DNA of 64,000 bases. Source: an uncultured bacterium (GTDB lineage: Bacteria; Abyssobacteria; SURF-5; CBDUXP01). Below are positions 21,804 to 58,041 of the stretch, piece after piece. The notes beneath the pieces are model-generated. The model did no database searches, was not told the origin of the DNA, and saw only the letters and a program-made list of their open reading frames with translations. Position numbers and translations under genes: made by a program. Each line of letters opens with the position of its first letter. The first letter of the stretch is position 1. The stretch lies in contig CBDUXP010000013.1 of assembly GCA_965371225.1 (NCBI GenBank), positions 10,767 through 74,766 of the forward strand. Reading direction: 5' to 3'.

Positions 21804-22009
21804 GGGCTCCTCCACCGGCAGGGTCGGGGGATGACTCCACCATACTCCACCGCGCGAGCCGAGAGGTATGCCCACGGCGCGGGCCGACACACATTCCATC
21901 GGTTCGTCATTATTCGGCGCCACATTGCCACGGTTCCGCCCCGGTAGACGCATTTTAATGTGGCTTACTTATCGCTGGGGAACGCACCCCGTCACCAAGG
22001 AGCCTCCAT

Positions 22010-30092: not shown

Positions 30093-30135
30093 CGCCGCAG
30101 CCGGGCCGGGGGGCCCGGGGTGGAGGGACAGACGT

Positions 30136-30819: not shown

Positions 30820-30836
30820 GGGGGCGCCTGCGTCGC

Positions 30837-32618: not shown

Positions 32619-32630
32619 AAGGACCCGCGC

Positions 32631-33656
32631 ATGACGCAGATTCACACACCACAGCCGACCGGCCAGGACACGACGATCCAGGAGCAGGTCGTCGCCATGT
32701 ACGAGCGCCATCCCTTCCCGGCGTACACGGACAAGTTCCGCAAAGCGTCCGAGGAGATGGTGCTGAAGATGCGGCTCCTGGGCTTGGCCGAGGCGGCGTA
32801 CACGAACAAGCGGATTCTCGACTGCGGGTGCGGCACGGGGGAGTTCACCTGCTGGTACGCGGCGCGCGGGAACGACGTGACGGCGGTGGACTTGTCCGGC
32901 CCCTCCATCGCGCACGCGAAGAAGTACGCGGCCAGTTACGAGCTGGAGGACCGCATCACGTTTCGGCAGCACTCCGTGCTCGAGTTGGACTTCCCGGACG
33001 ACTCGTTCGATATCGTCTATTCCTACGGCGTCCTGCACCACACGCCGGATCCCTACAAAGGCTTCCAGAATATGGTGCGCGTGTGCAAACCGGGCGGTAT
33101 CGTCATCGTAAGCGTCTACAGCCTGTACAGCCGGTTCATCCATCGGGAGAAGCAGCGGCTGATCGGTTGGCTGGCGGGGGACGACATCGAGGCGCGGTAC
33201 CGGTGGGGCAAGCGGCTCTTCCCGCTGACGGCGCGTAAACTCAAGCTGCGCGCGCACGACGACAGCGACGCAGTGTTGTACGACCAGTTCAGCCAGCCGC
33301 ACGAATCCCTGCACACGGCCGGGGAGATTCTCGGTTGGTATCGGGAGCATGGCCTGGAGTACCTGGGGGCGTTTGGGCCGCTGCGGATTCGCGATTACAT
33401 CTACGCGGCGAGTTTGCCGGAGTACCAGGTGTTCGAGCGCACCTTCGACGGTTACGTGCTGTCGCGCTTGGCCAGCGGCTGTCTCAAGGGCCTGGCGTCG
33501 GTGATGGGCTACCGGCCGGAGGAGGCGCACCCGTTCCCGTATCCCTCAGGCGTGTCGCAGGTGATGAGTCAGCTCGGTTGGGCCGCCTTGGGCTTGCGTT
33601 TCAGTTGCTTCAGCATCGCCGGCCGGAAGCCGCCGTCCGAGGCGCCCGCCGGATGA
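32631..33656 (+). CDS. Class I SAM-dependent methyltransferase
   Basis: ILDCGCGTG, VDLS, FDIVYSYGVLHHTPDP, LYDQFSQPHE. Confidence 0.88.
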   Translation: MTQIHTPQPTGQDTTIQEQVVAMYERHPFPAYTDKFRKASEEMVLKMRLLGLAEAAYTNKRILDCGCGTGEFTCWYAARGNDVTAVDLSGPSIAHAKKYAASYELEDRITFRQHSVLELDFPDDSFDIVYSYGVLHHTPDPYKGFQNMVRVCKPGGIVIVSVYSLYSRFIHREKQRLIGWLAGDDIEARYRWGKRLFPLTARKLKLRAHDDSDAVLYDQFSQPHESLHTAGEILGWYREHGLEYLGAFGPLRIRDYIYAASLPEYQVFERTFDGYVLSRLASGCLKGLASVMGYRPEEAHPFPYPSGVSQVMSQLGWAALGLRFSCFSIAGRKPPSEAPAG

Positions 33657-33696
33657 CCCCAGGCTCCCGGCGCCCCGCGGATCTGTCGGCCACGTC

Positions 33697-34770
33697 ATGA
33701 ACGCGGCGCACACCACCCCGTCGGCGTCCGGCGCCGCGCCCGCCACGCGCCATGGCATGCGGTTGCTGCGCGTGGCCATTAGCGTAGGGCTGCTGTACTA
33801 CATCCTGCGCAGCACCTCCCTCCAGGACATCGGTGCCGTCTTTGCGCGTGCGCTCGACCGGTGGCCGCTGTTGCTGGTGGCCACCGTGCTGCCCGGCCTC
33901 GGCACGCTGGCGGCAGTCCTCCGGTGGCGGGTGCTGCTCCGGGGGCTGGGCGCGCGGCCGAGCCTGGGCAGTCTCGCGCACGCGTATCTCGTCGGCCACT
34001 TCTTCAACCAGTTTCTGCCGTCCACCATTGGTGGGGATATGGTGCGCGGCTGGTGGATGAAGCACACGGTCGACTCGCCCGTCCAAAGCTTGACGGTGGT
34101 GGGGCTGGACCGGGTGATCGGGATGGTGGGGATCTGCGCGGTGGGGCTGCTCGCCGCCGTGCTGAGGCCGGACACCATTCGCGAGCTGCCCGCCTTCTGG
34201 GCCGTGCTGGGCCTCGCTACCCTCGGCTTGGTGTTTCTCGCCTTGATGTCCCATCCGCGCACCGCCGCTCTCGGGCGTCGGCTGACCGTCATCCCGCTCT
34301 TTCGTCCCTTGCAGGAGACGGGCCGCACCGTGTACGACGCGCTGCATACCTTTCGCCGCAAGCGGGCGCACCTCATGGCCGCGCTCCTATACTCCATGAT
34401 CCTGCAGCTCATCATCATCGGGCAATTCGTCCTGTTGTCCGTGGCGTTCGACTTGCCCGTGTCTCGCACGGGACTTGCGGCAATCGTTCCCGTCGTCACG
34501 CTGGTCAGCCTGCTGCCGCTCGCGATTAACGGCATCGGGTTGCGCGAGAGTGCCCTCGCCGTGCTCGGGGCGCCCCTCGGCCTCGCCGTGGGCGACGCCA
34601 TCGCGCTCGCTTGGGCCTTCATCTTCTTTACGTTCTTGTACGCGTTGGTCGGCGGCGGGCTGTACCTCGTCGGTCGGCGAGATCGCGCCCCCGCGGCGCC
34701 GGCTTCCCCGGTCGGGCCCCAGGTAGGTGAGGTGCGCCACGGCAGCGCGCCCGCGGGAGGGCGCGTATGA
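33697..34770 (+). CDS. Lysylphosphatidylglycerol-synthase TM-domain (flippase-like, UPF0104) protein
   Basis: [42 protein letters not shown]. Confidence 0.88.
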
Positions 34771-35573
34771 GCGGCGTTGCGGGGCACTTCGATGCCGCCC
34801 TGGCGGCGCCCGATCGGCATTCCGCGAAGCTGGCCCACGCGATCACGGATAAGTCCGTCTCCCTGCTGCAGCGGTATCGCGAGTTCGTGCTCGGTACCGA
34901 GGGCGGCTTGCGCGCATTGCTCACCTACGAGTTCGTCACCCTCTTCCTCACGCCGATGCCCGGGGCGCTGGGGCTGGCGCTCCGGCGGCTTTTCTTTCCG
35001 GCAATCCTCGGCCGAGTGGGCCGCGGGGTGGTCTTCGGGCGGAGCCTTACCGTGCGCCACGGCCGCAAGATCCGCCTGGACGACAACGTGGTCATCGACG
35101 ACTACGCGGCGCTGGACGCCAAGGGGGCGCACAACGACGGGATCGACATCGGCGCGCATGCGTTCATTAGCCGGAATGTCGTCCTGAGCTGCAAGGGCGC
35201 CAACATTCGCATCGGCCGCAACGTGACGATCGGTAACAACAGCCTGGTGCGTGCGCAGGATGACAGCCCGGTGACCATCGGGGACGACACGGTCATTGCG
35301 GCGTTCGTGGACATTGTGGGCGGCGGCAACTATCACACGAACCGCTTCGACGTGCCCATGTGGCAGCAGGGGCAGTATTCCAAGGGCGGCATCACGATCG
35401 GTGAAGATGTGTGGATCGGTTCGCACGTCCAGGTGTTGGACGGTGTCCGCGTCGGTCGGGGCAGCATCCTGGCCGCCGGCGCGGTGGTGCATCGCGACGT
35501 GCCGGACTACGCCATCGTCGGCGGCGTACCCGCCAAGATCATCGGCACGCGCGGATCGCCCCCCGGAAGCTGA
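34767..35573 (+). CDS. Hexapeptide-repeat (LbH) acyltransferase
   Basis: [IV]-G-x-x hexapeptide repeats; [30 protein letters not shown]. Confidence 0.9.
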
Positions 35574-39155: not shown

Positions 39156-40631
39156 GTGAGCGGCGTCGGCCAGCGAATCGTCAAGCATTCGTTCGTGTAC
39201 GGGATCCACGTGGTCCTGCGGCGGGTGGCGTCCATCCTCATGCTGCCCGTCTACACGCGCTACCTGACACCGGCGGACTACGGCACCCTCGAGCTGCTGA
39301 GCATCACCACCGAGGTGGCGGCGCTGGTGTTGGGTATAGGCCTGAATGCCGCGCTGTTCAAGTTTTTCAGCGACGCGGAATCCGACGAGGAACGGTCGGC
39401 CGTCATCAGCACCATCCTCATCCTCGTGATCCTGTTGTTCCTGTCCGGCGCGGCGGTGGGTATCGCGTGTGCCGGCCCCCTCTCGGCCCTCGTCTTCGGG
39501 ACGGTGGAGTACGCCGGGCTGTTCCGCGTTGTGTTCATGACCTTCTTTTTCCTGGCTGTGACGCAGGTCGGCTTGCGGCATCTCCAGGCGCACCAGCGGT
39601 CGGGGTTCTTCGTGCTCGTGGGCCTCGGTCTCGTGGCGCTGCAACTGTCGCTGAACGTGTACTTTCTCGTGGCGCGCGGCCTGGGCATCCGGGCGCTGCT
39701 CTACGGCAATCTCATCGCGCAGGCGGTGACGGCCACGCTGCTGATGGGTGCGATGGTGCGCGAGGTCGGCGTGCGCTTCTCCGTCCCGCTCGTCCGCCCG
39801 CTCGTGCGGTACGGCGCGCCCCTGATCGTGGTGAACCTCTGCGCGTTTGTCTACACGTTCGGCGATCGGTATTTCCTGAACCAGTTCGCGAGCACCGCGG
39901 ACGTGGGCCTGTACTCGCTGGCGTACCGTTTCGGGTTTATGCTCACGTTCCTGCTCCAGCCGTTCAACCGCATGTGGGCGGCGGAGCGCTTCGAAGTCGC
40001 GAAGCGGCCTGAGGCGCCGCAGGTGTACCGCCGGGTGTTCAACTACTATCTGTTCTTCCTGTTGTGCGCCGCGTTGGGCATCGCGCTTTTCGCCCGGGAT
40101 GCCATCTACATTCTGGCCACCCCGGAATTCCACCCGGCCTGGCGCGTGGTGTGGATCCTGGTGCTCGCGTACACGGTGTCCTCGGTCACCTCCTTCGGCT
40201 TGATCGGGGTGCTGGTTTCCGGCCGAACGGAACAGAACAGCGTGGCGACGTTCATCGCGGCCGTCGTGGCGCTCGCCGCGTACGCCCTGCTGATCCCGCG
40301 GTGGCACAGTACGGGCGCGGCGGTCGGCACCCTCCTCTGCTTCTGCGTGCGCCACGTGATCCTCATCCACTACTCCCAGCGGCACATCCGCATTCCGTAC
40401 GATTGGAACGCGATCCTCCGCATGGCGGCGCTGGCGGCGGGGTTGCTCACCGTGTCGCTGCTCGCGCCGGTCGAGCGCCTGCCGTTGTCCCTCGGGCTCC
40501 ACGCCGCGCTCTGGCTGGCGCTCCCGGTGGGCGTCTATTTCAGCGGCGCGTTCCCCGCTGCGGAGCGCGCGCAGTTCCTGGCCCTGCTGGCCAACCCGCG
40601 CCGGACCCTGCAGGGCATCCTCGCGGCGTGA
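39156..40631 (+). CDS. wzx: Wzx-type oligosaccharide flippase
   Basis: About 12-14 TM; LPVYTRYLTPADYG, DRYFLNQF..VGLYSLAYRFG, NALLIPRW-like segment. Confidence 0.85.
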   Translation: MSGVGQRIVKHSFVYGIHVVLRRVASILMLPVYTRYLTPADYGTLELLSITTEVAALVLGIGLNAALFKFFSDAESDEERSAVISTILILVILLFLSGAAVGIACAGPLSALVFGTVEYAGLFRVVFMTFFFLAVTQVGLRHLQAHQRSGFFVLVGLGLVALQLSLNVYFLVARGLGIRALLYGNLIAQAVTATLLMGAMVREVGVRFSVPLVRPLVRYGAPLIVVNLCAFVYTFGDRYFLNQFASTADVGLYSLAYRFGFMLTFLLQPFNRMWAAERFEVAKRPEAPQVYRRVFNYYLFFLLCAALGIALFARDAIYILATPEFHPAWRVVWILVLAYTVSSVTSFGLIGVLVSGRTEQNSVATFIAAVVALAAYALLIPRWHSTGAAVGTLLCFCVRHVILIHYSQRHIRIPYDWNAILRMAALAAGLLTVSLLAPVERLPLSLGLHAALWLALPVGVYFSGAFPAAERAQFLALLANPRRTLQGILAA

Positions 40632-40646: not shown

Positions 40647-41792
40647 TCATGTGTCCCGCGCGGACGCCGGATCGCCGGCGACCTCGGTGTACAGCCGCTC
40701 GAGCGCGCGCACCATCGTCTGCTGGCTGAACCGTTCCGCCACGGTCCGCACACCCCGGCCAACCAGGCGTTCCCGCAGCGCCTCGTCGGCCAACAGGGCG
40801 AGGATGGTCTCGGCCAGCGCCGCCGGCTGTTGCACGGGGGTCAGCAGCCCATTGACCTCAGGCTCGATGATCTCTTGGGAGGTGGGGATCGCCGTCGAGA
40901 TCACGGGGACCCCGGCGGCCATGGCTTCGATGATGACGAGACCGAACCCCTCATAGTGGGAAGACAGCACGAACACGTCGAAGGCGCGCAGGAGCGCAGG
41001 CACGTCTTGCCGAAAGCCGAGGAAGCGCACGCGGTCGCCGAGGCCCAATCCCGCCGCGCGCGCTTCCAGCGTCGCGCGTTCGCGGCCGTCGCCGGCCAGC
41101 ACGAGCCGGGTGTCCGGCCGCTGTTGCACGACCTGGGCGAACGCGTCGAGCAGATCCCCGTAGCCTTTCTGCGGGTGCAGCCGGCCGACGGTGCCGATGA
41201 CGGTCTCGCCCGCCGGGATGCCGAGCCGCTCCTTGGCCGCGCGCCGGTCCTCGGCGGACGCGTACGCCGCCGGATCGATCCCGTTGTAAATGACGGTGCA
41301 CCGATCGGGGCGGATGCCCGGCTGCTCGCAGACGAAAGCCTTGACAGATTCGGAGACGCACCGGATGCGGGCCGTTCGTGGCGCCAGCAGGCAATCCCAG
41401 CGGACCTGCCACCGCGACTTCACAGCGGTGTTGTGCTCAGACGCGATAAGACGCCGGCGCCCGGCCATCAGCGCGGCGAGCCGCCCGACTGTGTTCGCAT
41501 GCGGGAGGTGCGTTTCGACCACGTCGTATCCCCCCTGCCGCAAGAGCCGGGCGAGGCGGAGGATGGCCCGGACGTTGTAGCGAAACGGCAGAGGGCGGGT
41601 GTAGTCGAACACCTTGGCCACGTGGACAGTGTAGCCCGCCTCCTGAAACGCCGGGATCAACCGGTTGTCGTCATCGTACAGGCAGAAGAACGTGAGGTTG
41701 TATTTCGCGCGATCGATGGTTCTGGCTACGCGCAGGAGCAGGGCTTCCGCGCCGCCGATGCCGAGTCCGGTAATGATGACAGCGATTCGCAT
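40647..41792 (-). CDS. Glycosyltransferase family 4
   Basis: GGAEALL, VIYNGID, GRLHPQKG, SHYEGFGLVIIEAMAAG. Confidence 0.93.
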   Translation of the reverse strand: MRIAVIITGLGIGGAEALLLRVARTIDRAKYNLTFFCLYDDDNRLIPAFQEAGYTVHVAKVFDYTRPLPFRYNVRAILRLARLLRQGGYDVVETHLPHANTVGRLAALMAGRRRLIASEHNTAVKSRWQVRWDCLLAPRTARIRCVSESVKAFVCEQPGIRPDRCTVIYNGIDPAAYASAEDRRAAKERLGIPAGETVIGTVGRLHPQKGYGDLLDAFAQVVQQRPDTRLVLAGDGRERATLEARAAGLGLGDRVRFLGFRQDVPALLRAFDVFVLSSHYEGFGLVIIEAMAAGVPVISTAIPTSQEIIEPEVNGLLTPVQQPAALAETILALLADEALRERLVGRGVRTVAERFSQQTMVRALERLYTEVAGDPASARDT

Positions 41793-41814: not shown

Positions 41815-42873
41815 CTACGCCCCCGCCCGCGCCGCCGGCCGGATCACCCAGCCGCGCACCCGTCGCAGTAGTTCCAGCAGGCCGCACAGTTCCGCTTCGA
41901 ATTCGATGTCCGTCACGTTCTCGCCGTCCACGAAGCGCCGCAACTCCAAGCGTGGGGTGTCCCGGTAGTTCAAGCCGGGCTTCGTGGTGGTGGCGCTGAC
42001 GATACCCAGCTCGGCCAGCCAGGGCCACTGCCGCGGATGGTACGCCCCGCTCGGATAACAGAGATGGGCGAGCGGCTCGCGCACGAACGGGCGCAAGGCG
42101 TCGCGGTTCTCCTGAATTTCGCGCTCGCACTCCATCCGGTCGTCCTGCGGCAGCGCGTGCCGGTGCGTGTGCAGTTGGAGGTCGAGGCCCCCGTCCACCA
42201 GCGTCTGCATCTGCGGTGCCGTCAGCAGGAGGAATAACGGCTGCCCATTCGTTCCGCACAGGCTCACATCGAGCGCCTCGGCGACCGCGACCGCCAGGTC
42301 CCACCGTTCCTCGGCGTTGAGGCGGGCTTCCCCGAATGCGAGCACGGCGTCGCACGCCCGCGCCCGCTCTGCGGCGCGGGACAGATCGAATGGTCCCGCC
42401 AGCGTCGCATCGCGATGTGGCAGCGCGAAGGTGGAGACCGTCGTCAATGCATATGCGTACCGCACGGCCACGTTGAAGACCGGGACTTCTTTCAGCGCGT
42501 AGTGCGTGGTGACGTACACGGTCGCGGGCATGTTGTGCTCGCGCAGGATGGGGAGGACGTCGCTGCACGTGCCGCTCCAGCCGTCGTCTACGGTGATGAC
42601 CGTGGCGCACGGGGGCAGCTCGCCGCCGTCGAGTCCACGCACCGCCTCCGCGAGCGGCACCACGGGATACCCCCACGCCGCCAGTCGCGCCATGCGCCGG
42701 CGGAAGGTGGCGGGCTGCATGAAGAGCATGTCGTCGAACGTGTGTTCGTCCTTCTGGGAGATGCCGTGATAGCAGAGGATGCGTACGCCGCGCCGCGTGA
42801 GCCACCGGCAGAGAGGAAACGCTCCTACGCGCTTGAGAGCATGGAGGATCGCGACCTTGAACCCGTGTCGCAT
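41815..42873 (-). CDS. Polysaccharide deacetylase (NodB/CE4)
   Basis: ILCYHG, ITVDDG, LQLHTHRH, CYPSG, TTTKPGLN; start placed at the ATG at 42873 after GGAGG. Confidence 0.9.
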   Translation of the reverse strand: MRHGFKVAILHALKRVGAFPLCRWLTRRGVRILCYHGISQKDEHTFDDMLFMQPATFRRRMARLAAWGYPVVPLAEAVRGLDGGELPPCATVITVDDGWSGTCSDVLPILREHNMPATVYVTTHYALKEVPVFNVAVRYAYALTTVSTFALPHRDATLAGPFDLSRAAERARACDAVLAFGEARLNAEERWDLAVAVAEALDVSLCGTNGQPLFLLLTAPQMQTLVDGGLDLQLHTHRHALPQDDRMECEREIQENRDALRPFVREPLAHLCYPSGAYHPRQWPWLAELGIVSATTTKPGLNYRDTPRLELRRFVDGENVTDIEFEAELCGLLELLRRVRGWVIRPAARAGA

Positions 42874-42893
42874 CCCCCCCCTCCGGGGGCGCG

Positions 42894-43856
42894 CTACTGC
42901 CGCTTCGCCCATCGGAGCAGGGCGCTGCGCGACCAGACCATGAGGTAGCTGATGGGCGTGTAGCTGCCTTCCGCGTGCAGCCGCTGCCGCGTGGGCGACG
43001 TGGCGAGCGCGTTCCGGTTCGCTTCCTCCCCGGGTCCGCTGTAGAAAAACTGCGCGCCCCCCTCCTCCGGAATCTGCCGGATGTACCACAGCCGCGGACT
43101 GATGACGGCCACGTAGGGATCGTAGAACCAGCTATCCCCAAACCACCCCTTCACGTGCGGGTTCAGCTCGAAGAACTCCGCCAACCGCAGGCAGAATCGG
43201 GTGAGCCCTTCGGGCGTGAACTCCGAAAAGTCGCGGCTGTCGCTGTGCGGTTCGCAGATGGTGCGGAACCCCCGGGTTTCGAACGTGAAGTACCACAGGC
43301 CTTTGAAGAACTGCCGCGGCCCGTGGCGCCAGAGCAGGCTGCGCGGGACGCCGGAATATTCCTGAATCAGCCGCATGCCCGCCGGAATCATCCGCTGGCT
43401 GCAAATGGCCACGTCCTTGCAGAAGTTCTCGTTCGGGTACAGGTAGAACCCAGGCGCGTTGGTGTCGAGGCTATCGACAATGCGCTGCAGGGCGAGGGAG
43501 TACTGTTCCGCGATGCTCAGGGGAAGGATCCGCCCGCGGATGCGTTCGCGAAACCGCGCGATGAGGGTCATGAAAACGAGTTGATGGTACTGCTCGAGCA
43601 GCGGCTCGCGGCCCCCCGCCGCGATGGCGTTGCACATCTCCAGCGTCGCATCGCTGACAAAATGATAGGCCGCGTACCGGGGGCGCGCATCCAGGTGCTG
43701 GATATACGTGTCGATGGGATACCGCGCGAGCAGGTCGGCGTCCACGGCCGCAATCGCGTGCTGCAAGCGCTCCTGCTGCGCGCGCGTGTCCGGCACGACG
43801 ACCGTCTGCCCGTTCTCGCGCACCTCCCCCGCGGCCACCACCGGCGCGCCGCTCAT
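42894..43856 (-). CDS. Hypothetical protein, candidate GNAT_C-type (Orf11*/Dbv8-like) amino-sugar N-acyltransferase
   Basis: Helical N-half; C-half pattern H..(x)..TPE..RLAEFF..P..SWFYDP resembles, from memory, the H..TPE..FF..SWLLDP pattern of GNAT_C proteins. The ORF is secure (ATGA coupling); the family call is tentative. Confidence 0.5.
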   Translation of the reverse strand: MSGAPVVAAGEVRENGQTVVVPDTRAQQERLQHAIAAVDADLLARYPIDTYIQHLDARPRYAAYHFVSDATLEMCNAIAAGGREPLLEQYHQLVFMTLIARFRERIRGRILPLSIAEQYSLALQRIVDSLDTNAPGFYLYPNENFCKDVAICSQRMIPAGMRLIQEYSGVPRSLLWRHGPRQFFKGLWYFTFETRGFRTICEPHSDSRDFSEFTPEGLTRFCLRLAEFFELNPHVKGWFGDSWFYDPYVAVISPRLWYIRQIPEEGGAQFFYSGPGEEANRNALATSPTRQRLHAEGSYTPISYLMVWSRSALLRWAKRQ

Positions 43857-45097
43857 CGCGGCACCGCCGCGGGCTCTGGCACCAGTTCGGTGTAGAGGTC
43901 GAGCATCCCCTGCGCCAGTTGCGGCCATGCGAATTCCTGCTCCACCCGCGCCCGGCCCGCGCACCCCAGTCGAAGCCGGCGCTCACGGTCGGCGAGCAAG
44001 GCGACCGCGGCCGCAGCGAACGCCTCCGGAGTATCTGCGACGCACACGTCTCGCTCGGCCTCCGCATGCAGACCCTCACAGCCCACCGAGGTGGACAGCA
44101 CAGCCTTCTGCATTGCCCACGCATCGAGAACCTTCAGGCGCGTGCCGCCGCCTACGAGCAACGGCACGAAGAAGACGGCCGCTGCCTGCACGAGCGGACG
44201 GATGTCCTCCACCAGGCCGGTGACCGTCACGTGCTCCGGGTCGGCCGCCGCCGCGGCCACGGCGCCCGCCGAGGGGTGGGACCCGACGAACGTCACCGTG
44301 GCGTCCGGCCGCTCCCGGCGAATGCGCGGCCAGACGTCGCGGAGGAACCACGCGACGCCATCCCGGTTCGGGTACCACGACATCCCACCCACGAAAATCA
44401 GGTTCGGCGCCGATCCAGCGGGATCGGGGCCGGCACGGAAGTACGCCGTGTCCGTCCCGTTCTCCACCACGTGCACGCGCGCGCCCGGCGCCATCGCCAG
44501 GAAATCCTCGCGGTCGCTTGGGGAAACGGCCACGTGCGCGCCGACGCGCTGAAAACACGCGATCTCATACCGCCGCACCTTGCGCGCCTGCACGCCGAGG
44601 TACCAGCGCGCGGCGGGATTCGCCTCCGCCTCCGCGCGCCGCGCCAGCAGCTTCGACTCCACATTCTGATGGATCAACACCTGCGGCAGCGCCGGAGCCA
44701 GCGCCCCGTAGGGCGCTAGGGCGAGAGTTTCGAACTGCACCAGGTCGATCTGTTCCCGCCGCAACAGGTCCGCGGCCGCAGCGCGCAGCGGCGCCGATGC
44801 AAAACGGGGCACCAGGTACGGGTCGGCCGACAGGAGGTTGCGCGCGAGCAGTCCGGCATATGCGGCGCGGGACTGTTCCGTGGGAATGGGAAACACGCGG
44901 ACTTCCGCGCAGAATTCTTCCAAATGACGGACGGAAGCCGCCAAGGGATCGCCGGATTTGAGCAGGACCGTTTGATTGAAGGCGTACAGGAAGATGCGGT
45001 GGTGGCGGGCCACTTCCCGGAGCAGGTTGTAGCAGCGGAGCAGCACCCCTGAGGTGAGCGGATACGGCACCAGGTTCGAGAAGAGGAGGATGTTCAT
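43853..45097 (-). CDS. Glycosyltransferase family 4 (type seen in PEP-CTERM/exosortase loci)
   Basis: PYPLTSGVLLRCYNLL, HQNVES, VENGTD, FVGGMSWYPNRDG, GGGTRLKVLDAWAM. Confidence 0.88.
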   Translation of the reverse strand: MNILLFSNLVPYPLTSGVLLRCYNLLREVARHHRIFLYAFNQTVLLKSGDPLAASVRHLEEFCAEVRVFPIPTEQSRAAYAGLLARNLLSADPYLVPRFASAPLRAAAADLLRREQIDLVQFETLALAPYGALAPALPQVLIHQNVESKLLARRAEAEANPAARWYLGVQARKVRRYEIACFQRVGAHVAVSPSDREDFLAMAPGARVHVVENGTDTAYFRAGPDPAGSAPNLIFVGGMSWYPNRDGVAWFLRDVWPRIRRERPDATVTFVGSHPSAGAVAAAAADPEHVTVTGLVEDIRPLVQAAAVFFVPLLVGGGTRLKVLDAWAMQKAVLSTSVGCEGLHAEAERDVCVADTPEAFAAAAVALLADRERRLRLGCAGRARVEQEFAWPQLAQGMLDLYTELVPEPAAVPR

Positions 45098-47040
45098 GCG
45101 TACAGGGATCCGGGCTGGATGTCGTGTTGCGGCCCGGGCGCCGCCGCGCTGCCGAGGTACTCGCGATGCCACAGCATGAACGTCAGCAATCCCCAAATGT
45201 GATTCACGTAGTTCGCGCGCCGGGCGAAGTGGTCGTCCAGCAGCCGCCGCACCACGGGGTACTCGAACACCCCCGCCTGCTGCACCGCGGTCCGGGAAAG
45301 CACGTCCTCCAGAAACGGCCGCAGCTCGCCGCGGAACCACTCGGGTAGCGGCACGCTGAACCCCATCTTGCGGCGATTCAAGATGTGCGGCGGTAGCAGG
45401 TCCGCCACCGCCCGCTTCAGGATGTGCTTCCGCTCCAGGCCGCGCAATTTCAGCGCCGGGGGAATCGTGGCCGCGTATTCCAGCACGTGGTGATCCAGGA
45501 ACGGCACGCGCACCTCCAGCGAGTGCGCCATGGAAATCCGATCGCTCAGGGTCAACAGGTCGCCGGGCAGATACAACTTCAAATCACAAAACAACGCGCG
45601 GTTCAGGGGCGCGGCGTCGGCCACCCCGTTCATGGACCGGCGACACAGGTCCCCCGGCTCGTCCAGGGTGACCTGTTCGCGCATGCCGGGGCTAAGCAGG
45701 TCCTGCCGCAGGGCGGTGCCGAAGGTGGAGATGAGCGCGAAGTACCGCGCGTCGAACTCCAGGTCGAGCCCATGCACGAAGCGTTTGGCGCGTCCGGTCC
45801 ACTGGCCGCCCCGCCGGGAATCCGGCAACCGGTCCACCAGCGGCGCCAGTACTCCCTGCCGCAGCCACCGGGGCAGGCGGCGCAGGTGATTGCCCAGCAG
45901 CGCGCCCCGGTAGCGCTCGTACCCGGCCGCGACTTCATCGCCCCCCAGCCCGGAGAGCGCGACGGTCACGTGGCGGCGGGTCAACTCGCTCAGGTACCAA
46001 TTCGGAATCGCGGAAGAGTCGGCGAACGGCTGGTCGAACGCCCGCACCAGATGGGGCACCACCTCCGTGAGGTCCGGGCGGACGACGAACTCGCGATGCT
46101 GCGTGGCGTACCGTTCAGCGATCTCCCGCGCGGCCGGCCGTTCGTCGTACAGCTCGCCACCGTCCTCGTAGCCGATGGAAAACGTGCGGACCGGCTCGGA
46201 GCTGTGCGCGGCCATGAGCGCCACCACGCTCGCCGAGTCGATGCCGCCCGAGAGAAACGCGCCGAGTGGCACGTCCGACATGAGGCGCACGCGCACCGCG
46301 TCCTCCAGGTGGGCGCGCAGGCCCTCCGCGGTCTCGTCCGGCGTCCGCGTCTCGTCCACGTCGTACCGCAGGTCCCAGTACTTGCGCACCTCGCAGGCGC
46401 CGTTCTCGGCGACCAGCACGTGGCCGGCCTCCAGTTCCTGGAGGTCCTGGAAAATGGTCAGCGGCGCGGGGACGTACAGGAAGGTGAGGAAGTGGTTGAG
46501 CGCTGCGGGACTCAAGCGGCGTTCAACCGCCGGGTGCTGCAGCAGGCATTTCAGTTCGGAGCCCCAGAGCAACTGGCCGTCGGCCACGGTGTAGAAGAGC
46601 TGCTTAATGCCGACGCGGTCGCGGGCGAGCAACAACCGGCCGCGCGGCGCGTCCCACACGGCGAACGCGAACATGCCCCGCAGATGGGCGACGCAGTCCA
46701 CCCCATACTCCTCGTAGGCGTGCACGATGACTTCCGTGTCGCAGCGGGTGCGAAACCGGTGGCCGCGCCCTTCCAGCTCGCGGCGCAACGCCTGGAAGTT
46801 GTAGATCTCCCCATTGAACACCACCCACACGGACTCGTCTTCGTTCGCGATGGGCTGGGCGCCGCCGGCAAGATCGATGATGGCCAGGCGGCGCATGGCC
46901 AGCCCCACGCGGCCTGGATCCTCGTAGAAGCCCTCCCCGTCCGGGCCCCGGTGGGTGATGACCCGGTTCATGGCCTCCAACAGGCCCCGGTCGATGGGGA
47001 GGCCGCCCTCCAGGGAGTGGATTCCAGCGATGCCGCACAT
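45094..47040 (-). CDS. asnB: Asparagine synthase (glutamine-hydrolysing)-like amidotransferase
   Basis: MCGI N-terminal Cys, HRGPDG, RRLAIID, FNGEIYN, RDRVGIKQL, LSGGIDS, LSGLGGDE, SLEVRVPFLD, KMGF. Confidence 0.95.
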   Translation of the reverse strand: MCGIAGIHSLEGGLPIDRGLLEAMNRVITHRGPDGEGFYEDPGRVGLAMRRLAIIDLAGGAQPIANEDESVWVVFNGEIYNFQALRRELEGRGHRFRTRCDTEVIVHAYEEYGVDCVAHLRGMFAFAVWDAPRGRLLLARDRVGIKQLFYTVADGQLLWGSELKCLLQHPAVERRLSPAALNHFLTFLYVPAPLTIFQDLQELEAGHVLVAENGACEVRKYWDLRYDVDETRTPDETAEGLRAHLEDAVRVRLMSDVPLGAFLSGGIDSASVVALMAAHSSEPVRTFSIGYEDGGELYDERPAAREIAERYATQHREFVVRPDLTEVVPHLVRAFDQPFADSSAIPNWYLSELTRRHVTVALSGLGGDEVAAGYERYRGALLGNHLRRLPRWLRQGVLAPLVDRLPDSRRGGQWTGRAKRFVHGLDLEFDARYFALISTFGTALRQDLLSPGMREQVTLDEPGDLCRRSMNGVADAAPLNRALFCDLKLYLPGDLLTLSDRISMAHSLEVRVPFLDHHVLEYAATIPPALKLRGLERKHILKRAVADLLPPHILNRRKMGFSVPLPEWFRGELRPFLEDVLSRTAVQQAGVFEYPVVRRLLDDHFARRANYVNHIWGLLTFMLWHREYLGSAAAPGPQHDIQPGSLYA

Positions 47041-47553: not shown

Positions 47554-47814
47554 ATGGCGAGCAGAGCAGGGGGGGAATCGCCGGTTCCGGCCGACGGGGA
47601 AATCCTGACGACGGAGGAGGCCTGCCGGTTCCTGAAGATCGGCCGCACCAAGCTGTGGCAACTCACGCAGGCCAATGAAGTCCCGGCCTACCGCGTCGGC
47701 AACAGTGCGCGCAGCGAGCTGCGGTACCTGCGCTCCGAGTTGCTGGCGTGGCTGTCGGGCAACCGGCTGACCGGGAAGCGGGCGCCCAAGGAAGCGCAGC
47801 CGGATCATGGGTAG
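47554..47814 (+). CDS. Small excisionase/BldC-like HTH (HTH_17) DNA-binding protein
   Basis: ILTTEEACRFLKIGRTKLWQL..VPAYRVG..LRYLRSELLAWL is the typical winged HTH_17 pattern. Confidence 0.85.
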   Translation: MASRAGGESPVPADGEILTTEEACRFLKIGRTKLWQLTQANEVPAYRVGNSARSELRYLRSELLAWLSGNRLTGKRAPKEAQPDHG

Positions 47815-47842
47815 CCGGCGCGCTCCGGCGCGGAGTGGCCCC

Positions 47843-48772
47843 ATGCGGCTGAGCATCGTCATTCCCGTCTACAACGAAGTTGAGAGCATCGGGGCCGTAA
47901 TCCATGACTGCATCCGGGTGCTCGACGCGGAAAAATTGCCGGGGGAGATCGTCGTGGCGGACGACGGCAGTACGGACGGCACGCCCGCCCTCCTGTACGA
48001 CTTGGCGGCGGACCTGCCCCGGCTTCGGGTGATCTGCTTCCGGCGGAATCGCGGGCAGACGGCCGCCATGGCCGCCGCCATCCAGTCTTCTACAGGGGAC
48101 GTGATCGTCGGGATGGATGGGGATGGGCAGAACGATCCGCGCGACATCCCGCTGTTGCTGGCGAAGATGGCCGAGGGCTACGACGTGGTGAGCGGGTGGC
48201 GCCGGGAGCGGCAAGATCGGTGGCTGAGCCGCACGTTCCCCTCACGCGTGGCGAACGCGATCATTCGTCTGGTCACCGGCGTGCCGCTGCACGACAACGG
48301 CTGCTCGCTGAAGGCCTACCGGGCGGCGGTGTTGCGCGCGCTGCCCCTGTACAGCGATATGCACCGCTTCTTGCCCGGGCTGTGCGCCGCGCGCGGGGCA
48401 CGCGTGGCGGAAGTCGCGGTGCGGCACCACGCGCGAGAGCACGGCCAGTCGAAGTACGGCCTATCGCGCATCTGGAAGGTGTTGCTGGACATTCTCGGGC
48501 TGAAGATGCTCATGACCTTCTCCAGCCGGCCCGCGCAATGGTTCGCGCTGTGCGCGGTGCCGTGGCTCCTGGTGGCGGTGCTCGCGTTCGGCGCGTGGAT
48601 CGTGGCGGCCTGGGCCGGGGAGAGCTTCGTGATCTTCCCCGCCATCAGTCTGCTCTGCGCGTACCTCGGCGTGCACCTGTTGGTTCTGGGGCTCGTGGGC
48701 GAGGCCTTCGTGCAGCACAGTCCGTACCGCGGCGTGGGTCTCATACTGCCCCTGGCGGAGGAAACGACATGA
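47843..48772 (+). CDS. Glycosyltransferase family 2, polyprenol-phosphate glycosyltransferase (ArnC/GtrB/DPM-like)
   Basis: SIVIPVYNE, DDGSTD, RNRGQ, MDGDGQNDP, DNGCSLKAYR, HRFLP, two C-terminal TM. Confidence 0.92.
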   Translation: MRLSIVIPVYNEVESIGAVIHDCIRVLDAEKLPGEIVVADDGSTDGTPALLYDLAADLPRLRVICFRRNRGQTAAMAAAIQSSTGDVIVGMDGDGQNDPRDIPLLLAKMAEGYDVVSGWRRERQDRWLSRTFPSRVANAIIRLVTGVPLHDNGCSLKAYRAAVLRALPLYSDMHRFLPGLCAARGARVAEVAVRHHAREHGQSKYGLSRIWKVLLDILGLKMLMTFSSRPAQWFALCAVPWLLVAVLAFGAWIVAAWAGESFVIFPAISLLCAYLGVHLLVLGLVGEAFVQHSPYRGVGLILPLAEETT

Positions 48773-51265: not shown

Positions 51266-52470
51266 CCGGGAGCGCGCGCGGGACGGCGATGGCGGGGCCG
51301 CCGCTTACTGCGAAGCCGGCCGCCGTGCCCGTGCTGTACGTGGACGCGAGTTTGACCGTGGGCGGTGCGCCCACGTCGCTCGCATTGCTGTTGCGCCACG
51401 TGCAGGGGGTCCGGCCTGTGGTGCAGTACAGCCTGCCCGAGTCGCAGGCCACGCCGTTTTCGGCATGGGACGCCACGTACGTGCCCCACTGGGATCCCCC
51501 CGTTACCGGCAAGGGCTGGCGTAAGGATGGCGCGCGCAATGGGGGCGTGCCGGCATTGCTGCACGTGGGACAGCGTCTGTGGCGCCAATTGCGCCCCGCG
51601 GCGCAACGGACGGCGGCGCTGGCGCGCGCTTCGGGTGCGCGGCTGATTCACTGCAACAACCAGATCAGCACGAACTTGCCCGCGATCCTGGCGGCGCGCT
51701 GGCTGGGCATTCCCTGCATCGTGCATCACCGGGGTTATGAGCGTGGCGCCCGGCTGCCCCGCGCCTTGTCGCGCTTCGTCGCCCACCACATCTGCGTGTC
51801 CCAGAGCATCGCGGACCACTTGATCGCGTGGGGCGTGCCGGCCGCCAAGGTCAGCGTGATCCACAACGGGATCGCCGTCGAAGCGGGACCACCGCCGCGG
51901 CCGTGCACGCCGACGGTGACCGTAGGAGCGGTGGGCCGGTTCGTGCGCTGGAAAGGTCTTCACGTGGCGGTCGAGGCGGCGTTGCGCGTCGCGGTGGATT
52001 GTCCCCAGGCGCGGTTCATGTTCGTCGGCGGCGTCCACCCGAACATCCCCGAGTATCACGCCGAGCTGGAAGCACTGGTGAAAGCCGGCCCGCAGGCGGA
52101 CCGGATTGCGTTCCTCGGCCATCGGGCCGATGCGGCGGCGCTTATGCAGCAGATGGACATTCTCATGCACACGTCCATCGAGCCCGAACCGTGCGCGCGG
52201 GTGCTGCTCGAGGGCATGGCCGCCGGTTGCGCGGTGGTCACCACCGATGTGGGCGGATCGCCCGAGCTGGTGGCCGATGGCGCGGGCCGCGTGTTGCCTG
52301 CGGGGGATGTGGACGCCTTGGCGCGCGAACTGCGCGCGCTCATTACCGACCCGGCGGCGCGGCGGGCGTTGCAGGAGCGCGGGCTGGCCCAAGTGCAGGC
52401 CCGCTTCAGCGCCGCGCGCGTGGCGCGGCAAGTGGAGGGGTTGTATGCCGTCTGCCTCGGCACGGCGTGA
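51262..52470 (+). CDS. Glycosyltransferase family 4
   Basis: ATGA overlap; GGAPTSL, IHNGI, GRFVRWKG, EPCARVLLEGMAAG. Confidence 0.9.
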   Translation: MTGSARGTAMAGPPLTAKPAAVPVLYVDASLTVGGAPTSLALLLRHVQGVRPVVQYSLPESQATPFSAWDATYVPHWDPPVTGKGWRKDGARNGGVPALLHVGQRLWRQLRPAAQRTAALARASGARLIHCNNQISTNLPAILAARWLGIPCIVHHRGYERGARLPRALSRFVAHHICVSQSIADHLIAWGVPAAKVSVIHNGIAVEAGPPPRPCTPTVTVGAVGRFVRWKGLHVAVEAALRVAVDCPQARFMFVGGVHPNIPEYHAELEALVKAGPQADRIAFLGHRADAAALMQQMDILMHTSIEPEPCARVLLEGMAAGCAVVTTDVGGSPELVADGAGRVLPAGDVDALARELRALITDPAARRALQERGLAQVQARFSAARVARQVEGLYAVCLGTA

Positions 52471-53764
52471 GCGGGTAGCGGGCGGCACGTTCGCCCGCTT
52501 CGCGTGGGGGCTGCTGCTCGTCTTCGTCATTCTGTACTTCGCGCGCCCGCAGGACACGTACGGCTTCGCGTTTCCCGGCCTGCTGAAGATCGTGGCGCTG
52601 CCCATGTGCGGGTGTTGGGTGCTCGCCATCGTCGTGGAGGGGTGCTGGCCCCCGCTGCACGTCCGGCAGGTGCGCTGGCTGTTGGGCCTGCTCGCGCTGA
52701 TGGCGTTCTCCACGGTATTCGCGCTCGTGTTCCGCTACGCCATCCTGAGCACCATCTACGTGGGGCAACACATCGTGTTGCCCGTCATCGTCGCGGCGAC
52801 CTTGGTGTCCACCCGGGAGCGCTTCTATACGTTGATGCACTGGTTCGCCGGCGCGGTAGCCCTGCTCGCGGTGGAGGGGGTGCGGATTTACGTGTTGCCG
52901 GGCGGCCGCCGCTGGGCGGGCGGCATCAGCGGACACTTCGTCGGCGGCCCGAACGAATTCGCGCTCTTCGTCGCCATGTTCCTGCCGCTGCTCGTGTTCA
53001 TGGCGCTCACCCGGAAGACGGTGCGCTGGCGCCGGGTGTGGTGGGTGCTCAGCGCCTGCGCCCTCGCCGGTGCCGTCTTCACCTTTTCCCGCGGCGCGTT
53101 CCTCGCCCTCGCGGGCATGGGGTGCTACATGCTGTATCGGTCGTCGGGCCATCGTGGAGGCTTGGCCGCCATGGCGGTGGGCGTGCTGCTGGTGCTCTAC
53201 CTGGCGCTGCCCGCGTCGTACTGGGAGAATCTGCAAGGGGTCGGGCCCCACCGGACCCGCAGCGGGAAGGTGGAGTTTGCCGACGGCTCCGCGCAGGGCC
53301 GGTACGAAGCCTGGCAGGCGGCGGTCCTCATGGCCAAGGATCGTCCGCTGACCGGCGTCGGCCCCGGCAACTCCTGGGCGGCCATGTGGGAGACTTACCG
53401 GCCCGAGGGGGTGAAACGCGCCCGGCCGGCGCACAGCATGTACTTCGACATGCTGGGGGACCTGGGTATCCCCGGCGTGCTCTGGCTCGTCGGCCTCGGC
53501 GTGCTCAACGTGCGGACGGCGCGTGCCGTCCAGCGCAAGGCGGCGCAGGACGGCGATCGGGATGCGGCGCTCCTGGGCCAGGCGCTTGAGCTGAGCGTGG
53601 TCGGGCTCATGGTGGGCGGCGCGTTCCTGTCCGTCGCGTTCCACCCGCAGCTGTACTGGCTCGCGTTCTTTATCGGCGCGCTGGGCGACGTGGGCATCGC
53701 CGCCCCCGCCGCGGCGCCGGTGCCGGTCCCCGTGCGGCCGCGCTACGGGTTGGTGCGCACGTGA
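52445..53764 (+). CDS. O-antigen ligase/Wzy_C family protein, similar to exosortase-associated O-glycosylation ligases
   Basis: About 12 TM; GPNEFAL, TFSRGAFL, DGSAQGRYEAWQAA..PLTGVGPG, AHSMYFDMLGDLGIPG, AFLSVAF. Start uncertain. Confidence 0.82.
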   Translation: MPSASARRERVAGGTFARFAWGLLLVFVILYFARPQDTYGFAFPGLLKIVALPMCGCWVLAIVVEGCWPPLHVRQVRWLLGLLALMAFSTVFALVFRYAILSTIYVGQHIVLPVIVAATLVSTRERFYTLMHWFAGAVALLAVEGVRIYVLPGGRRWAGGISGHFVGGPNEFALFVAMFLPLLVFMALTRKTVRWRRVWWVLSACALAGAVFTFSRGAFLALAGMGCYMLYRSSGHRGGLAAMAVGVLLVLYLALPASYWENLQGVGPHRTRSGKVEFADGSAQGRYEAWQAAVLMAKDRPLTGVGPGNSWAAMWETYRPEGVKRARPAHSMYFDMLGDLGIPGVLWLVGLGVLNVRTARAVQRKAAQDGDRDAALLGQALELSVVGLMVGGAFLSVAFHPQLYWLAFFIGALGDVGIAAPAAAPVPVPVRPRYGLVRT

Positions 53765-56039: not shown

Positions 56040-57196
56040 CCGGCGCCCCCCTGCGGGTTGGCCACGTGCTCACCGGCGACGCGTGGGCCGGCGCCGAAGC
56101 GCAGGCGTGGCACTTGGTGCACCGGTTGCCGGAACATGGCGTGCAGCCGCACGTGGCGCTCCTGAACCCGGGCGAAACGGCGGAGCGGTTCGCAGCGCTC
56201 GGCGTGCCGGTCACGCTGCTGGACGAGCACGTCCTCGGCCGGCGTGCGCTGGCGCGGCGGTTGCGCGCGTGGATGGGGGACGCGCGTCTGAACCTCGTGC
56301 ACACACACAAGTACAAGAGCCACCTGTTCAGCGTCTGGGCGACGCGCGGCGACGCGGGGCCCGCGATCGTCCGCACACTCCACGGCGCACCGGAGGTGCC
56401 CGCCGGGTGGCGCTGGGTGAAGGGCAGCGTCGCGAACGCGCTCGACGGCTGGGCCCTGCGCGGGCGCACGGCGGCGGTCATCGCGGTGTCCCAGGAACTG
56501 GCGGCCCGGTTCCGTTCACGTCTGGGCCGGACGCCTTTGCACACGATTCCCAACGGGGTGGTCTGTCCGCCGGTGCCGCCGGCCGTCCCGCCACATCCGC
56601 CGCGCTTGGTCTTCTGCGGCCGGCTGGCGCCGGTGAAGCGTGTGGACCGGCTCATTCGCGCGCTCGCGGTGATCCGCGCCGCCGTTCCCGAGGCGGAACT
56701 CTGGATCGTCGGCACCGGGTCGGAGGAGCCGGCGTTGCGCGCACTCGCTCGCTCGGTGGGCGTGTCCGAGGCGGTGCAGTTTTGCGGGTGGCGGCCGGAC
56801 GTACCGGACCTGTTGGCGCAGAGCGATGTAGTCGTGATGAGTTCACGGCACGAGGGGTTGCCCATGATCGTGTTGGAGGCCGGCGCGGCGGGGAAGCCCG
56901 TCGTCGCGCCCCGCGTCGGTGGCATTCCGGAAGCCGTGCGCGACGGGGAGACCGGCGTCCTGGTGGATGACGCCACGCCGACGGCACTCGCGGCGGCGTG
57001 CGTGTCGGTGTTGCAGGATCGCGCGCGCGCGGACGCCATGGGCCGCGCAGCGCGCCAGCATGTGGCGACGAACTTTTCGGTGGAAGCCATGACGGCGGCC
57101 ACGAGCGCGCTGTACACCGCGGTGCTCGCCGGTGCGGTAGATGTGAACCTGCGGCCGGCGCCGGCTGCGTCTGCGGTGGGGGAGGGGGCGGCATGA
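56018..57196 (+). CDS. Glycosyltransferase family 4
   Basis: WAGAEAQ, VHTHKYKS, IPNGV, GRLAPVKR, HEGLPMIVLEAGAAG. Confidence 0.9.
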   Translation: MAAVRAVAGAPLRVGHVLTGDAWAGAEAQAWHLVHRLPEHGVQPHVALLNPGETAERFAALGVPVTLLDEHVLGRRALARRLRAWMGDARLNLVHTHKYKSHLFSVWATRGDAGPAIVRTLHGAPEVPAGWRWVKGSVANALDGWALRGRTAAVIAVSQELAARFRSRLGRTPLHTIPNGVVCPPVPPAVPPHPPRLVFCGRLAPVKRVDRLIRALAVIRAAVPEAELWIVGTGSEEPALRALARSVGVSEAVQFCGWRPDVPDLLAQSDVVVMSSRHEGLPMIVLEAGAAGKPVVAPRVGGIPEAVRDGETGVLVDDATPTALAAACVSVLQDRARADAMGRAARQHVATNFSVEAMTAATSALYTAVLAGAVDVNLRPAPAASAVGEGAA

Positions 57197-58041
57197 GCGC
57201 TCCCAGCCAAGCGGACCGCCGCGCCGTGGTGCAGGGCGCGGTCCTGTGGGGCGCCGGACTCCTGGCGCTGGGCCTGCTGTATCGCGAAACCCTCTGGGAT
57301 TGGTACCGGTTCCTGAAGGGGGACTTGGAAGAGGGACTGGGCATGCTGGTGCCGCCGCTGGTGGGGTATCTGGTTTGGCGGCGGCGCGACGCGTTGGCGC
57401 AGACGCCGGCCGGCGTGTCGTGGGCCGGGGCCCTGGCATTCGTCGTTGCGATGGCCTTCACGGCGGGGACGGAAGCGCTCTGGTTCGGCACCGGTGCCCG
57501 GTTGGGCCTGTGGTGCGCCGTCGCAACCTTGACGTGGGCCGCGTGGGGCGGCTCGTGGACGCGAGTGCTGGTGGTGCCGCTGCTGTTCCTGTTCTTCGCG
57601 CAACCCATGCCGGTCACCCTCTCGGACCTTCTCACGCATCCGTTGCGGTTGCGCGTGACGGCGCACGCGGCGCAGGTGCTGTCGCTGGGTGGGTTGCCCG
57701 CCGTGGCCGAGGGCGTGCTGCTGCACATGCCGCGCGCCACATTGGAGACGACGGCGGCGTGCAGTGGGGTGCGCGGGTTCGTGGCGGCGGTGGCGGTGGC
57801 GCTGCTCTTGGCGGACTTGGTGCCGGGGCCGCGGCTCACCACGGCGGCGATGTTCCCCGGCGCGTTGCTCGTAGCCTATGTGTTGAATCTGGTGCGCGTG
57901 ATGATGGAAGCGGTGTGGACCAGCGTCGCGGGCGGCCCGTCGGCCGCGATAGTCCACACGAGCTTTGGGCTGTTCACTTTCGCCGGTGTGGCGTGGATCC
58001 TTGCGATATGGCAATTACGGACGAGCGACGGTTTCAGCTAG
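57193..58041 (+). CDS. xrt: Exosortase (EpsH family)
   Basis: About 8 TM; catalytic triad motifs ACSGVRG (Cys), NLVRV (Arg), VHTSFG (His); PLLFLFFAQPMP; directly followed by EpsI. Confidence 0.9.
   Translation: MSAPSQADRRAVVQGAVLWGAGLLALGLLYRETLWDWYRFLKGDLEEGLGMLVPPLVGYLVWRRRDALAQTPAGVSWAGALAFVVAMAFTAGTEALWFGTGARLGLWCAVATLTWAAWGGSWTRVLVVPLLFLFFAQPMPVTLSDLLTHPLRLRVTAHAAQVLSLGGLPAVAEGVLLHMPRATLETTAACSGVRGFVAAVAVALLLADLVPGPRLTTAAMFPGALLVAYVLNLVRVMMEAVWTSVAGGPSAAIVHTSFGLFTFAGVAWILAIWQLRTSDGFS

Follow-up and report, generated by a model that had tools for sequence, protein, structure and literature searches.

This work concerns two adjoining genes in a 64,000-nucleotide stretch of DNA, called the window below, from an uncultured bacterium of the lineage Abyssobacteria (contig CBDUXP010000013.1, positions 10,767 to 74,766). 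The first is an open reading frame (ORF) of 320 amino acids (aa), labelled FAM. The second encodes a deacetylase, labelled DEAC. On balance we favour the reading that FAM and DEAC are a conserved cytoplasmic two-enzyme module for swapping acyl groups, in a Wzx-dependent, exosortase-associated exopolysaccharide operon.

The proposed sequence of events is simple. A GT4 glycosyltransferase would add an N-acetyl-hexosamine to a lipid-linked repeat unit, and DEAC, a metal-dependent CE4 enzyme, would strip the N-acetyl group and so bare a free amine. FAM would hold an acyl-thioester, most likely acyl-coenzyme A (acyl-CoA), between a helical N-terminal domain and a GNAT-like C-terminal domain, as the acyltransferases Orf11* and Dbv8 do, and would move a non-acetyl acyl group onto the freed amine. 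A second GT4 would then extend the unit, and Wzx would flip it. What the acceptor sugar and the donor are, how long the chain is and in which order the steps follow is given here as we infer it.

The GC content of the window is around 69%, and real reading frames were picked by the GC content at each codon position. The genes of the operon, and those of the surrounding locus that matter for the argument, are the following:

45094..47040, minus strand: AsnB-like glutamine amidotransferase of the XrtA/PEP-CTERM type, opening the operon (TIGR03108, 7.4e-210; PF00733, PF13537)
43853..45097, minus strand: GT4 glycosyltransferase, stp1-like (TIGR03087, 4.9e-68; PF13692)
42894..43856, minus strand: FAM, 320 aa from its ATG, putative acyl-CoA-dependent N-acyltransferase, predicted cytoplasmic, of an unnamed family of ~305 aa
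41815..42873, minus strand: DEAC, 352-aa cytoplasmic CE4 (NodB-homology) deacetylase (PF01522 Polysacc_deac_1, 3.9e-15)
40647..41792, minus strand: GT4 glycosyltransferase, stp2-like and also BshA-/MshA-like, last gene of the operon (PF00534, 1.2e-47; TIGR03088, 3.6e-53; BshA, 6.5e-41)
39156..40631, plus strand: Wzx-type flippase, convergent with the operon across a 15-nucleotide (nt) gap (PF01943, PF13440; HfsF, 3.5e-13)
52106..53764, plus strand: O-antigen-ligase/Wzy_C-like protein of the exosortase A-associated type (TIGR03097, 1.3e-47)
56998..58041, plus strand: exosortase, XrtA-like (TIGR03109, 5.9e-33; TIGR02602)

From 47040 down to 40647 the operon runs head to tail on the minus strand, in the order asnB-like, GT4, FAM, DEAC, GT4. 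The junctions are tight. Both the asnB/GT4 and the GT4/FAM junction are ATGA overlaps, FAM and DEAC are 18 nt apart with a GGAGG within, and 22 nt separate DEAC from the last GT4. DEAC starts with MRHGF, from an ATG at 42873 with the GGAGG 5’ of it, while the longest form of FAM has 356 aa from a GTG at 43964. A scan of the operon for promoters and terminators gave nothing above chance. A preliminary description of the window had reported a 320-aa motif-bearing ORF directly upstream of a NodB deacetylase, in an operon with asnB and two GT4s, and all of this can be read in the sequence. The motif string PHSDSRDFSEFTPEGLTRFCLRLAEFFELNPHVKGWFGDSWFYDP is found verbatim in FAM.

The presence of a Wzx-type flippase implies that the repeat unit is completed in the cytoplasm before it is flipped. 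Beyond the operon, toward the exosortase, there are three additional glycosyltransferases (two GT4, one GT2). The components of an XrtA/PEP-CTERM locus are the best matches of the genes concerned, but all of them score under the NCBIfam cut-offs: XrtA has 114 bits versus 208, TIGR02602 102.5 versus 105.55, stp1 230 versus 316.65, stp2 181 and 227 versus 409, and the amidotransferase 698.8 versus 816.9. Going by these matches, the locus is a divergent exosortase-type exopolysaccharide system.

DEAC scores 56.4 bits against PF01522, where the cut-off is 23.1, and has the Asp-Asp and His-His motifs of a CE4 member. It falls short of the equivalog models for NodB (TIGR04243, 19.7 bits, 4.7e-4, cut-off 240) and PgaB (TIGR03938, 42.4 bits, cut-off 321.9), and it has an insert of ~110 aa between motif 1 and motif 2. 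Across 18 partner orthologues T-DDGW, LHxHxH and HxCxPSG are invariant. We take these to be the CE4 catalytic Asp, metal-binding Asp and His-His motifs, and by that measure DEAC looks active. The deacetylase partner in another locus, L002 (comparison loci carry numbers of this form), is 35% identical to DEAC over the full length, and the FAM partners are alike in this.

No membrane-spanning segment or signal peptide is found in either FAM or DEAC. Their highest Kyte-Doolittle means over 19 residues are 0.76 and 1.05, and that of Wzx is 2.87. Two loci (L021 2061-4331 and L023 3254-5524) encode a 756-aa fusion of a CE4 domain (PF01522, residues 89-294) with a GT4 domain (380-733), divergently adjacent to FAM, which physically ties deacetylation to cytoplasmic glycosyl transfer. 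Because of this fusion, and because neither protein has a hydrophobic stretch, both reactions are placed on the cytoplasmic side, before flipping. This is also where acyl-CoA or acyl-acyl carrier protein (acyl-ACP) donors are available.

FAM itself has gone unnamed. Neither it nor its two nearest homologues have a Pfam match, even at E<=10, and FAM has neither an NCBIfam nor a PDB sequence match. A word-indexed protein search returns 2-13 FAM relatives, and two homologues for FAM itself. Searching 1.84 billion cluster representatives exhaustively with a profile returns 1,203 at E<=1e-3 and 590 at <=1e-30, with family clusters counted at 50% identity. Most members are 300-320 aa long. The possibility that FAM is a spurious high-GC frame was ruled out by these 1,203 related representatives and by its codon-position GC of 0.66/0.50/0.84, which is the pattern of a real gene for a window of this GC content.

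In an alignment of 86 members, with a mean column identity of 33%, the residues W243, R290 and P301 are invariant. Near-invariant are F145, K147, P158, G160, P199, H204, G237, D246, P247, S253, P254, G267, A283, S287, G297, Y299, W308 and R310. The polar residues in this set look like what one would see in an enzyme active site. The family also comes in tandem, with two units fused into 620-690 aa (P0004, P0005, P0009; L024 5977-7857), or elsewhere as adjacent genes (L042 5758-7610).

A pattern scan of GTDB species representatives produced 26 FAM loci. Carriers belong to the Gamma-, Beta-, Alpha- and Deltaproteobacteria, Acidobacteriota, Rokubacteria and Krumholzibacteria. Among those in culture are Zoogloea oryzae, two Massilia, Desulfoluna butyratoxydans, Geomesophilobacter sediminis (with two copies) and an Oleiphilaceae strain. 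The source of the window is a metagenome-assembled genome of 4.35 Mb in 126 contigs. Its phylum counts no more than 11 species representatives, and FAM is missing from the remaining 10 as well as from ~390 genomes of other families. The FAM/DEAC pair was therefore probably acquired horizontally, and for the same reason FAM is not open to study through close relatives. A tblastn search against plasmids gave no FAM match.

What FAM might do is suggested chiefly by its predicted fold. The AlphaFold (AF2) model made from the 86-sequence alignment has a pLDDT of 95.3 and a pTM of 0.91; from an alignment of 3 sequences, the pLDDT is 47.6. The modelled protein has a helical N-terminal domain (~25-130) and a GNAT-like alpha/beta C-terminal domain (~140-320) with five strands.

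Orf11* (also tcp24 or Tei11) and Dbv8 are the acyl-CoA:glucosaminyl-pseudoaglycone N-acyltransferases of teicoplanin and A40926, with structures 4mfj, 4mfk, 4q36, 6iix and 4mfz in the PDB. When the FAM model is compared with the PDB by Foldseek, ranks 1-4 are 4q36 (with octanoyl-CoA and teicoplanin), 4mfk (with decanoyl-CoA), 6iix (a W163A mutant) and 4mfj (apo), all of them Orf11*. These have probabilities of 0.99-1.00, E-values of 6e-3 to 2e-2 and 332-352 aligned columns, for a query of 320 residues and targets of 323-328. From rank 5 down the probability is <0.3, and the better ones there are ordinary GNATs: AAC(6’)-Ib, PA2578, NAT9 and SpeG. By Foldseek, the model appears to have the two-domain fold of the solved Orf11*/Dbv8 structures, at a whole-chain TM-score of 0.40-0.47. 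Since the input to the model contained neither an Orf11* relative nor a template, this match is independent of the preliminary description, which had proposed an Orf11*/Dbv8-like enzyme.

As to fold, that proposal is borne out by a predicted GNAT-like fold whose top four matches are Orf11*. Membership by sequence of the Pfam families PF18164 (GNAT_C) and PF18082 (NAT_N) fails at E<=10. A genome-collected protein with PF18082 and PF18164 matches Orf11* and Dbv8 at ~1e-23, and both domains are carried by all 120 listed relatives.

Between profiles a fainter link can be seen. Aligned by hhalign, the 86-sequence FAM alignment and 50 PF18082+PF18164 proteins have one collinear match, with a P of 3.9e-4 and a score of 37.5. 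The controls score 28.2 (reversed), 16.8 (unrelated) and at most 31.4 (20 block-shuffled). In the core of this match H204 of FAM falls on the invariant His of ‘VHIPA’, and S242-W243-F-Y-D246-P247 on ‘SWLLDP’, which in Orf11* itself reads SWMLDP. In a Pfam scan of the 86 FAM members, GNAT_C was the sole family touched more than once, namely twice, at E 0.15. The hhalign link is weak alone but agrees with the predicted fold. Going by the profile models, FAM is treated here not as a PF18164/PF18082 member but as a separate, distant and unnamed sister family.

The second line of evidence is that the two genes stay together. Hidden Markov models (HMMs) of FAM and of the partner deacetylase were run on the six-frame ORFs of all fetched loci, where a pair was defined as a PF01522 deacetylase within one gene of FAM. 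It was found in 23 of 34 independent loci (17/26 genome, 6/8 metagenome). A strong partner-type deacetylase directly adjoins FAM, often overlapping it, in L027, L029, L030, L032, L033, L036, L037, L038, L039, L041, L043 and L046. In L026 and L028 it is one gene off, the intervening gene being of the Acyl_transf_3 type by similarity to a PF01757-annotated gene of L008, while in L025 a more distant PF01522 deacetylase adjoins FAM. L021 and L023 count as paired through the divergent CE4-GT4 fusion described above. The metagenome loci with the pair are the window itself, L002/L003, L008, L009, L011 and L012, and those without are L001 and L006.

Given that the window’s own genome has a single copy of the DEAC subfamily, chance adjacency comes to ~1e-3 per locus. 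The pairwise identities of FAM and of the deacetylase in 18 paired loci correlate with r = 0.785, a value that 0 of 2,000 Mantel permutations reach. As far as sequences can tell, the pair is inherited as a unit. The FAM loci all have the character of polysaccharide loci, in which GT4s, Wzx, Wzy_C/ligase-like proteins, AsnB-like genes and exosortases occur. The preliminary description had suggested that residues are de-N-acetylated and then re-acylated. Both the conserved pair and the Orf11*-like predicted fold argue for this, and the biochemistry is what we infer from them. Lipidation of the glycan, which it had also raised, is no more than a possible outcome.

In the paired loci some other genes recur. 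A membrane acyltransferase of the Acyl_transf_3 type (PF01757) accompanies the pair in ~8 loci, sometimes between both genes; the window operon is without one. These genes are:

L008, 9900-10958: Acyl_transf_3 gene
L009, 6786-7841: Acyl_transf_3 gene
L026, 3772-4881: Acyl_transf_3 gene
L028, 1575-2675: Acyl_transf_3 gene
L036, 7984-9051: Acyl_transf_3 gene
L037, 7571-8605: Acyl_transf_3 gene
L039, 6924-7982: Acyl_transf_3 gene

In L006 (3374-4546) the gene after FAM is not of the CE4 type; it encodes a 390-aa protein without a Pfam match, which may be an alternative deacetylase partner.

FAM could also be an acyltransferase whose acceptor is something other than the amine freed by DEAC. It would then act by O-acylation of the glycan, or by N-acylation at a different amino group (that of an aminotransferase-derived amino sugar, for example, or of a uronate amidated via the AsnB-like enzyme), with the genes travelling together as one decoration cassette. 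The loci that lack the deacetylase (11/34) fit this, and so do the AsnB-like genes within ~6 kb in 8 loci and the Acyl_transf_3 genes in ~8, which together have the look of mixed decoration kits. In L006 there is moreover an aminotransferase gene two genes downstream. Yet no other neighbour is nearly as constant as the deacetylase (23/34), which is usually overlapping or <25 nt off and co-diverges with FAM as described, and the only characterised fold relatives are N-acyltransferases acting on de-N-acetylated glucosamine (PMC8987122). We consider this alternative quite unlikely.

It might also be asked if FAM is an enzyme at all. It could be a non-catalytic partner of DEAC or of a GT4 (a scaffold, specificity subunit or regulator) that has kept an Orf11*-like fold and lost transferase activity. 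Tight translational coupling to the deacetylase and co-divergence with it would suit such a role, the canonical GNAT pyrophosphate-binding motif could not be verified in FAM, and the double-FAM fusions (P0004, P0005, P0009; L024) could indicate a structural dimer. What makes this highly improbable is that ~20 residues, with polar and charged ones among them (K147, H204, D246, S253, S287, R290, Y299, R310), are invariant or near-invariant over >86 sequences that are only ~33% identical, which is typical of active sites, and that FAM occurs without the deacetylase in 11 loci.

Where the acyl group of the proposed swap would come from is hinted at by one locus. In L001 (2314-12409) an AsnB gene is followed by a CapK-like AMP-ligase, an ACP, a sulfotransferase, a KASIII, an SDR/ketoreductase, another KASIII, and then the FAM homologue P0002, which has its start 4 nt beyond this second KASIII. 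Next is an ExeA-like ATPase, and the remaining 1.4 kb hold no deacetylase. This set is a candidate for a dedicated acyl-ACP supply, and hints at a 3-hydroxyacyl donor. The window’s own genome has, on contig C14 (8715-10928), a 737-aa protein in which a GT2 N-terminus is joined to a CapK-like adenylate-forming enzyme; it is the genome’s only homologue of the L001 AMP-ligase.

Quite some observations weigh against an acyl swap by FAM and DEAC. The TM-score given above lies under the usual same-fold line of 0.5, with a root-mean-square deviation of 7-9 Å, although a different domain orientation or hinge angle may account for this in a two-domain protein. FAM has no match to PF18164 (gathering score 22.8 bits) or to PF18082 at E<=10, a search of the whole genome for members of these types gave no candidate, and the hhalign probability is only 36%. 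Profiles built from 3 and from 86 sequences, run with HMMER on the PDB sequences, gave noise only and no Orf11* match. The invariant His that FAM and the PF18082+PF18164 family have in common is absent in Orf11* itself, so that one cannot just take this His for the catalytic base, nor can catalytic residues be transferred from one protein to the other.

The genomic evidence has such points as well. No CE4 deacetylase is adjacent to FAM in the 11 loci already mentioned. Scans of the window found no acyl-activating or ACP gene in it, and only 1 of the 34 loci, L001, has the ACP/KASIII set. For the FAM family no paper or database name was found, nor a biochemical datum for any member.

Deacetylation followed by acylation is known from glycopeptide antibiotics, where Tei2 or Dbv21 acts first and Tei11 or Dbv8 second (PMC8987122). 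Like FAM, Orf11* and Dbv8 are each encoded beside a de-N-acetylase that would unmask the acceptor amine (PMC8987122). They are the best and only confident structural match, collinear over the full length at 320 versus 323 aa, and the SW..DP motif is common to both. The differences are the missing HMM membership and the low TM-score described above. There are also differences in setting. Orf11* comes from an actinomycete glycopeptide cluster and has a peptide aglycone acceptor, whereas FAM is found in Wzx/exosortase polysaccharide operons of Gram-negative or uncultured lineages, and its acceptor would be a lipid-linked glycan.

The deacetylases differ too. Those of teicoplanin and A40926, Orf2* and Dbv21, are of the LmbE (LmbE/PIG-L) type, whereas the partner here is a CE4 enzyme, which brings the FAM/DEAC pair closer to NodB and HfsH. 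In the Nod system NodB, a cytoplasmic CE4 deacetylase, removes the N-acetyl group of N-acetylglucosamine, after which the N-acyltransferase NodA adds a fatty acyl chain. The preliminary description had drawn both parallels; the logic of NodB carries over to this CE4 partner, but the type of Orf2*/Dbv21 does not. Even so, the similarity of DEAC to NodB is weak (TIGR04243, 4.7e-4) and far under the cut-off, FAM, which matches nothing in Pfam or NCBIfam, does not qualify as a NodA, and the window operon has no NodC-type chitin-oligomer synthase.

The holdfast of Caulobacter crescentus, an adhesive polysaccharide, involves the cytosolic deacetylase HfsH and the putative acyltransferase HfsK (PMC5362036). 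As in the window, this is a Wzx/Wzy-type polysaccharide with a cytosolic deacetylase and an enzyme of the GNAT superfamily, and the Wzx of the window resembles HfsF. HfsK is however tandem-GNAT and FemX-like, regulated by cyclic di-GMP and not adjacent to hfsH, whereas FAM resembles Orf11* and is coupled in translation to its deacetylase. The functions of both proteins are putative.

Canonical PEP-CTERM/XrtA loci have an exosortase, stp1/stp2 GT4s and an AsnB-like amidotransferase in common with the window. In these loci, the genes matching TIGR03006, a deacetylase, and TIGR03019, a FemAB-related protein, are usually neighbours. DEAC is not the former and FAM is not the latter, and TIGR03019 has no match in FAM or anywhere else in the genome. 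A TIGR03006-like gene is present, only on another contig. FAM may be an alternative occupant of the TIGR03019 slot. The presence of PF01522 in PEP-CTERM/XrtA-type loci has been noted before (PMC1569441).

This leads to one more possibility, which is that FAM has a GNAT-like scaffold with another chemistry: aminoacyl transfer (which has been proposed for FemAB-like proteins in canonical PEP-CTERM loci), the hydrolysis of thioesters, or a transfer in which the group is very short or unusual instead of being a fatty acyl chain. NCBIfam has models for the PEP-CTERM-locus deacetylase and for the FemAB-related protein, and in a genome without TIGR03019 FAM could fill that slot. ATP-grasp genes annotated as ‘sugar-transfer associated’ are moreover found near FAM in L002 and L042. 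FemX-type proteins are tandem GNAT domains, however, while FAM has one GNAT-like and one helical domain, which matches Orf11* and not the Fem structures. We regard this other chemistry as very unlikely.

If FAM and DEAC do swap acyl groups, this would give a function to a family of ~1,200 clusters (at 50% identity) of ‘hypothetical proteins’ without a Pfam or NCBIfam model. The Orf11*/Dbv8 fold would then reach from antibiotic tailoring to the assembly of surface polysaccharides. Many exopolysaccharides would carry non-acetyl N-acyl groups, possibly missed by composition analyses. The FAM/CE4 pair could mark such polymers in genomes, and could supply enzymes for diversifying the N-acyl groups of amino sugars. 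Carriers in culture, such as Massilia, Zoogloea, Desulfoluna and Geomesophilobacter, allow a direct test of the acyl-swap model.

A wider picture can be drawn, which is tentative and rather unlikely to hold. The FAM family as a whole would consist of N-acyltransferases making exopolysaccharides that are lipidated or carry unusual N-acyl groups, both in systems of the exosortase type and in others that depend on Wzx. Once de-N-acetylation has taken place in the cytoplasm, FAM would add a medium or long chain, or a 3-hydroxyacyl chain of the sort that the L001 set would build, and the resulting glycolipid-like polymer would anchor the matrix or cross-link it hydrophobically. We know of no description so far of a modification class or enzyme family of this sort for bacterial exopolysaccharides.

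The window contains further genes of note. Upstream of the operon, at 28992-35573, lies a glycan-decoration block with an SDR epimerase/dehydratase, two S-adenosylmethionine methyltransferases, a flippase-like membrane protein and these two genes:

30837-32618: NodU-like carbamoyltransferase
34767-35573: hexapeptide-repeat acetyltransferase

Two sulfotransferases (PF13469) face each other at the far end of the locus, at 61218-62243 on the plus strand and 62306-63409 on the minus strand. L001 also has a sulfotransferase beside FAM.

A ‘marine proteobacterial dedicated sortase’ set occupies 18940-24106, in what is the genome of a small non-proteobacterial phylum:

18940-21126, minus strand: histidine kinase (TIGR03785, 7e-151)
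21111-21953, minus strand: response regulator (TIGR03787, 1e-75)
22010-24106, plus strand: sortase target protein (TIGR03788, 775 bits, above cut-off)

Next to it, at 11654-18931, a gene for a SagB-type protein is flanked by genes for FG-GAP repeat proteins (11654-13519 and 17414-18931), with a cation/proton antiporter (13770-15650) in between:

15720-17267: SagB-type peptide dehydrogenase-domain protein (TIGR03605, 5e-46)

Finally, an 86-aa helix-turn-helix gene of the excisionase family (47554-47814) overlaps the start of an ArnC-like polyprenyl-phosphate GT2 gene (47807-48772) by 8 nt, and both are divergent from the asnB operon.

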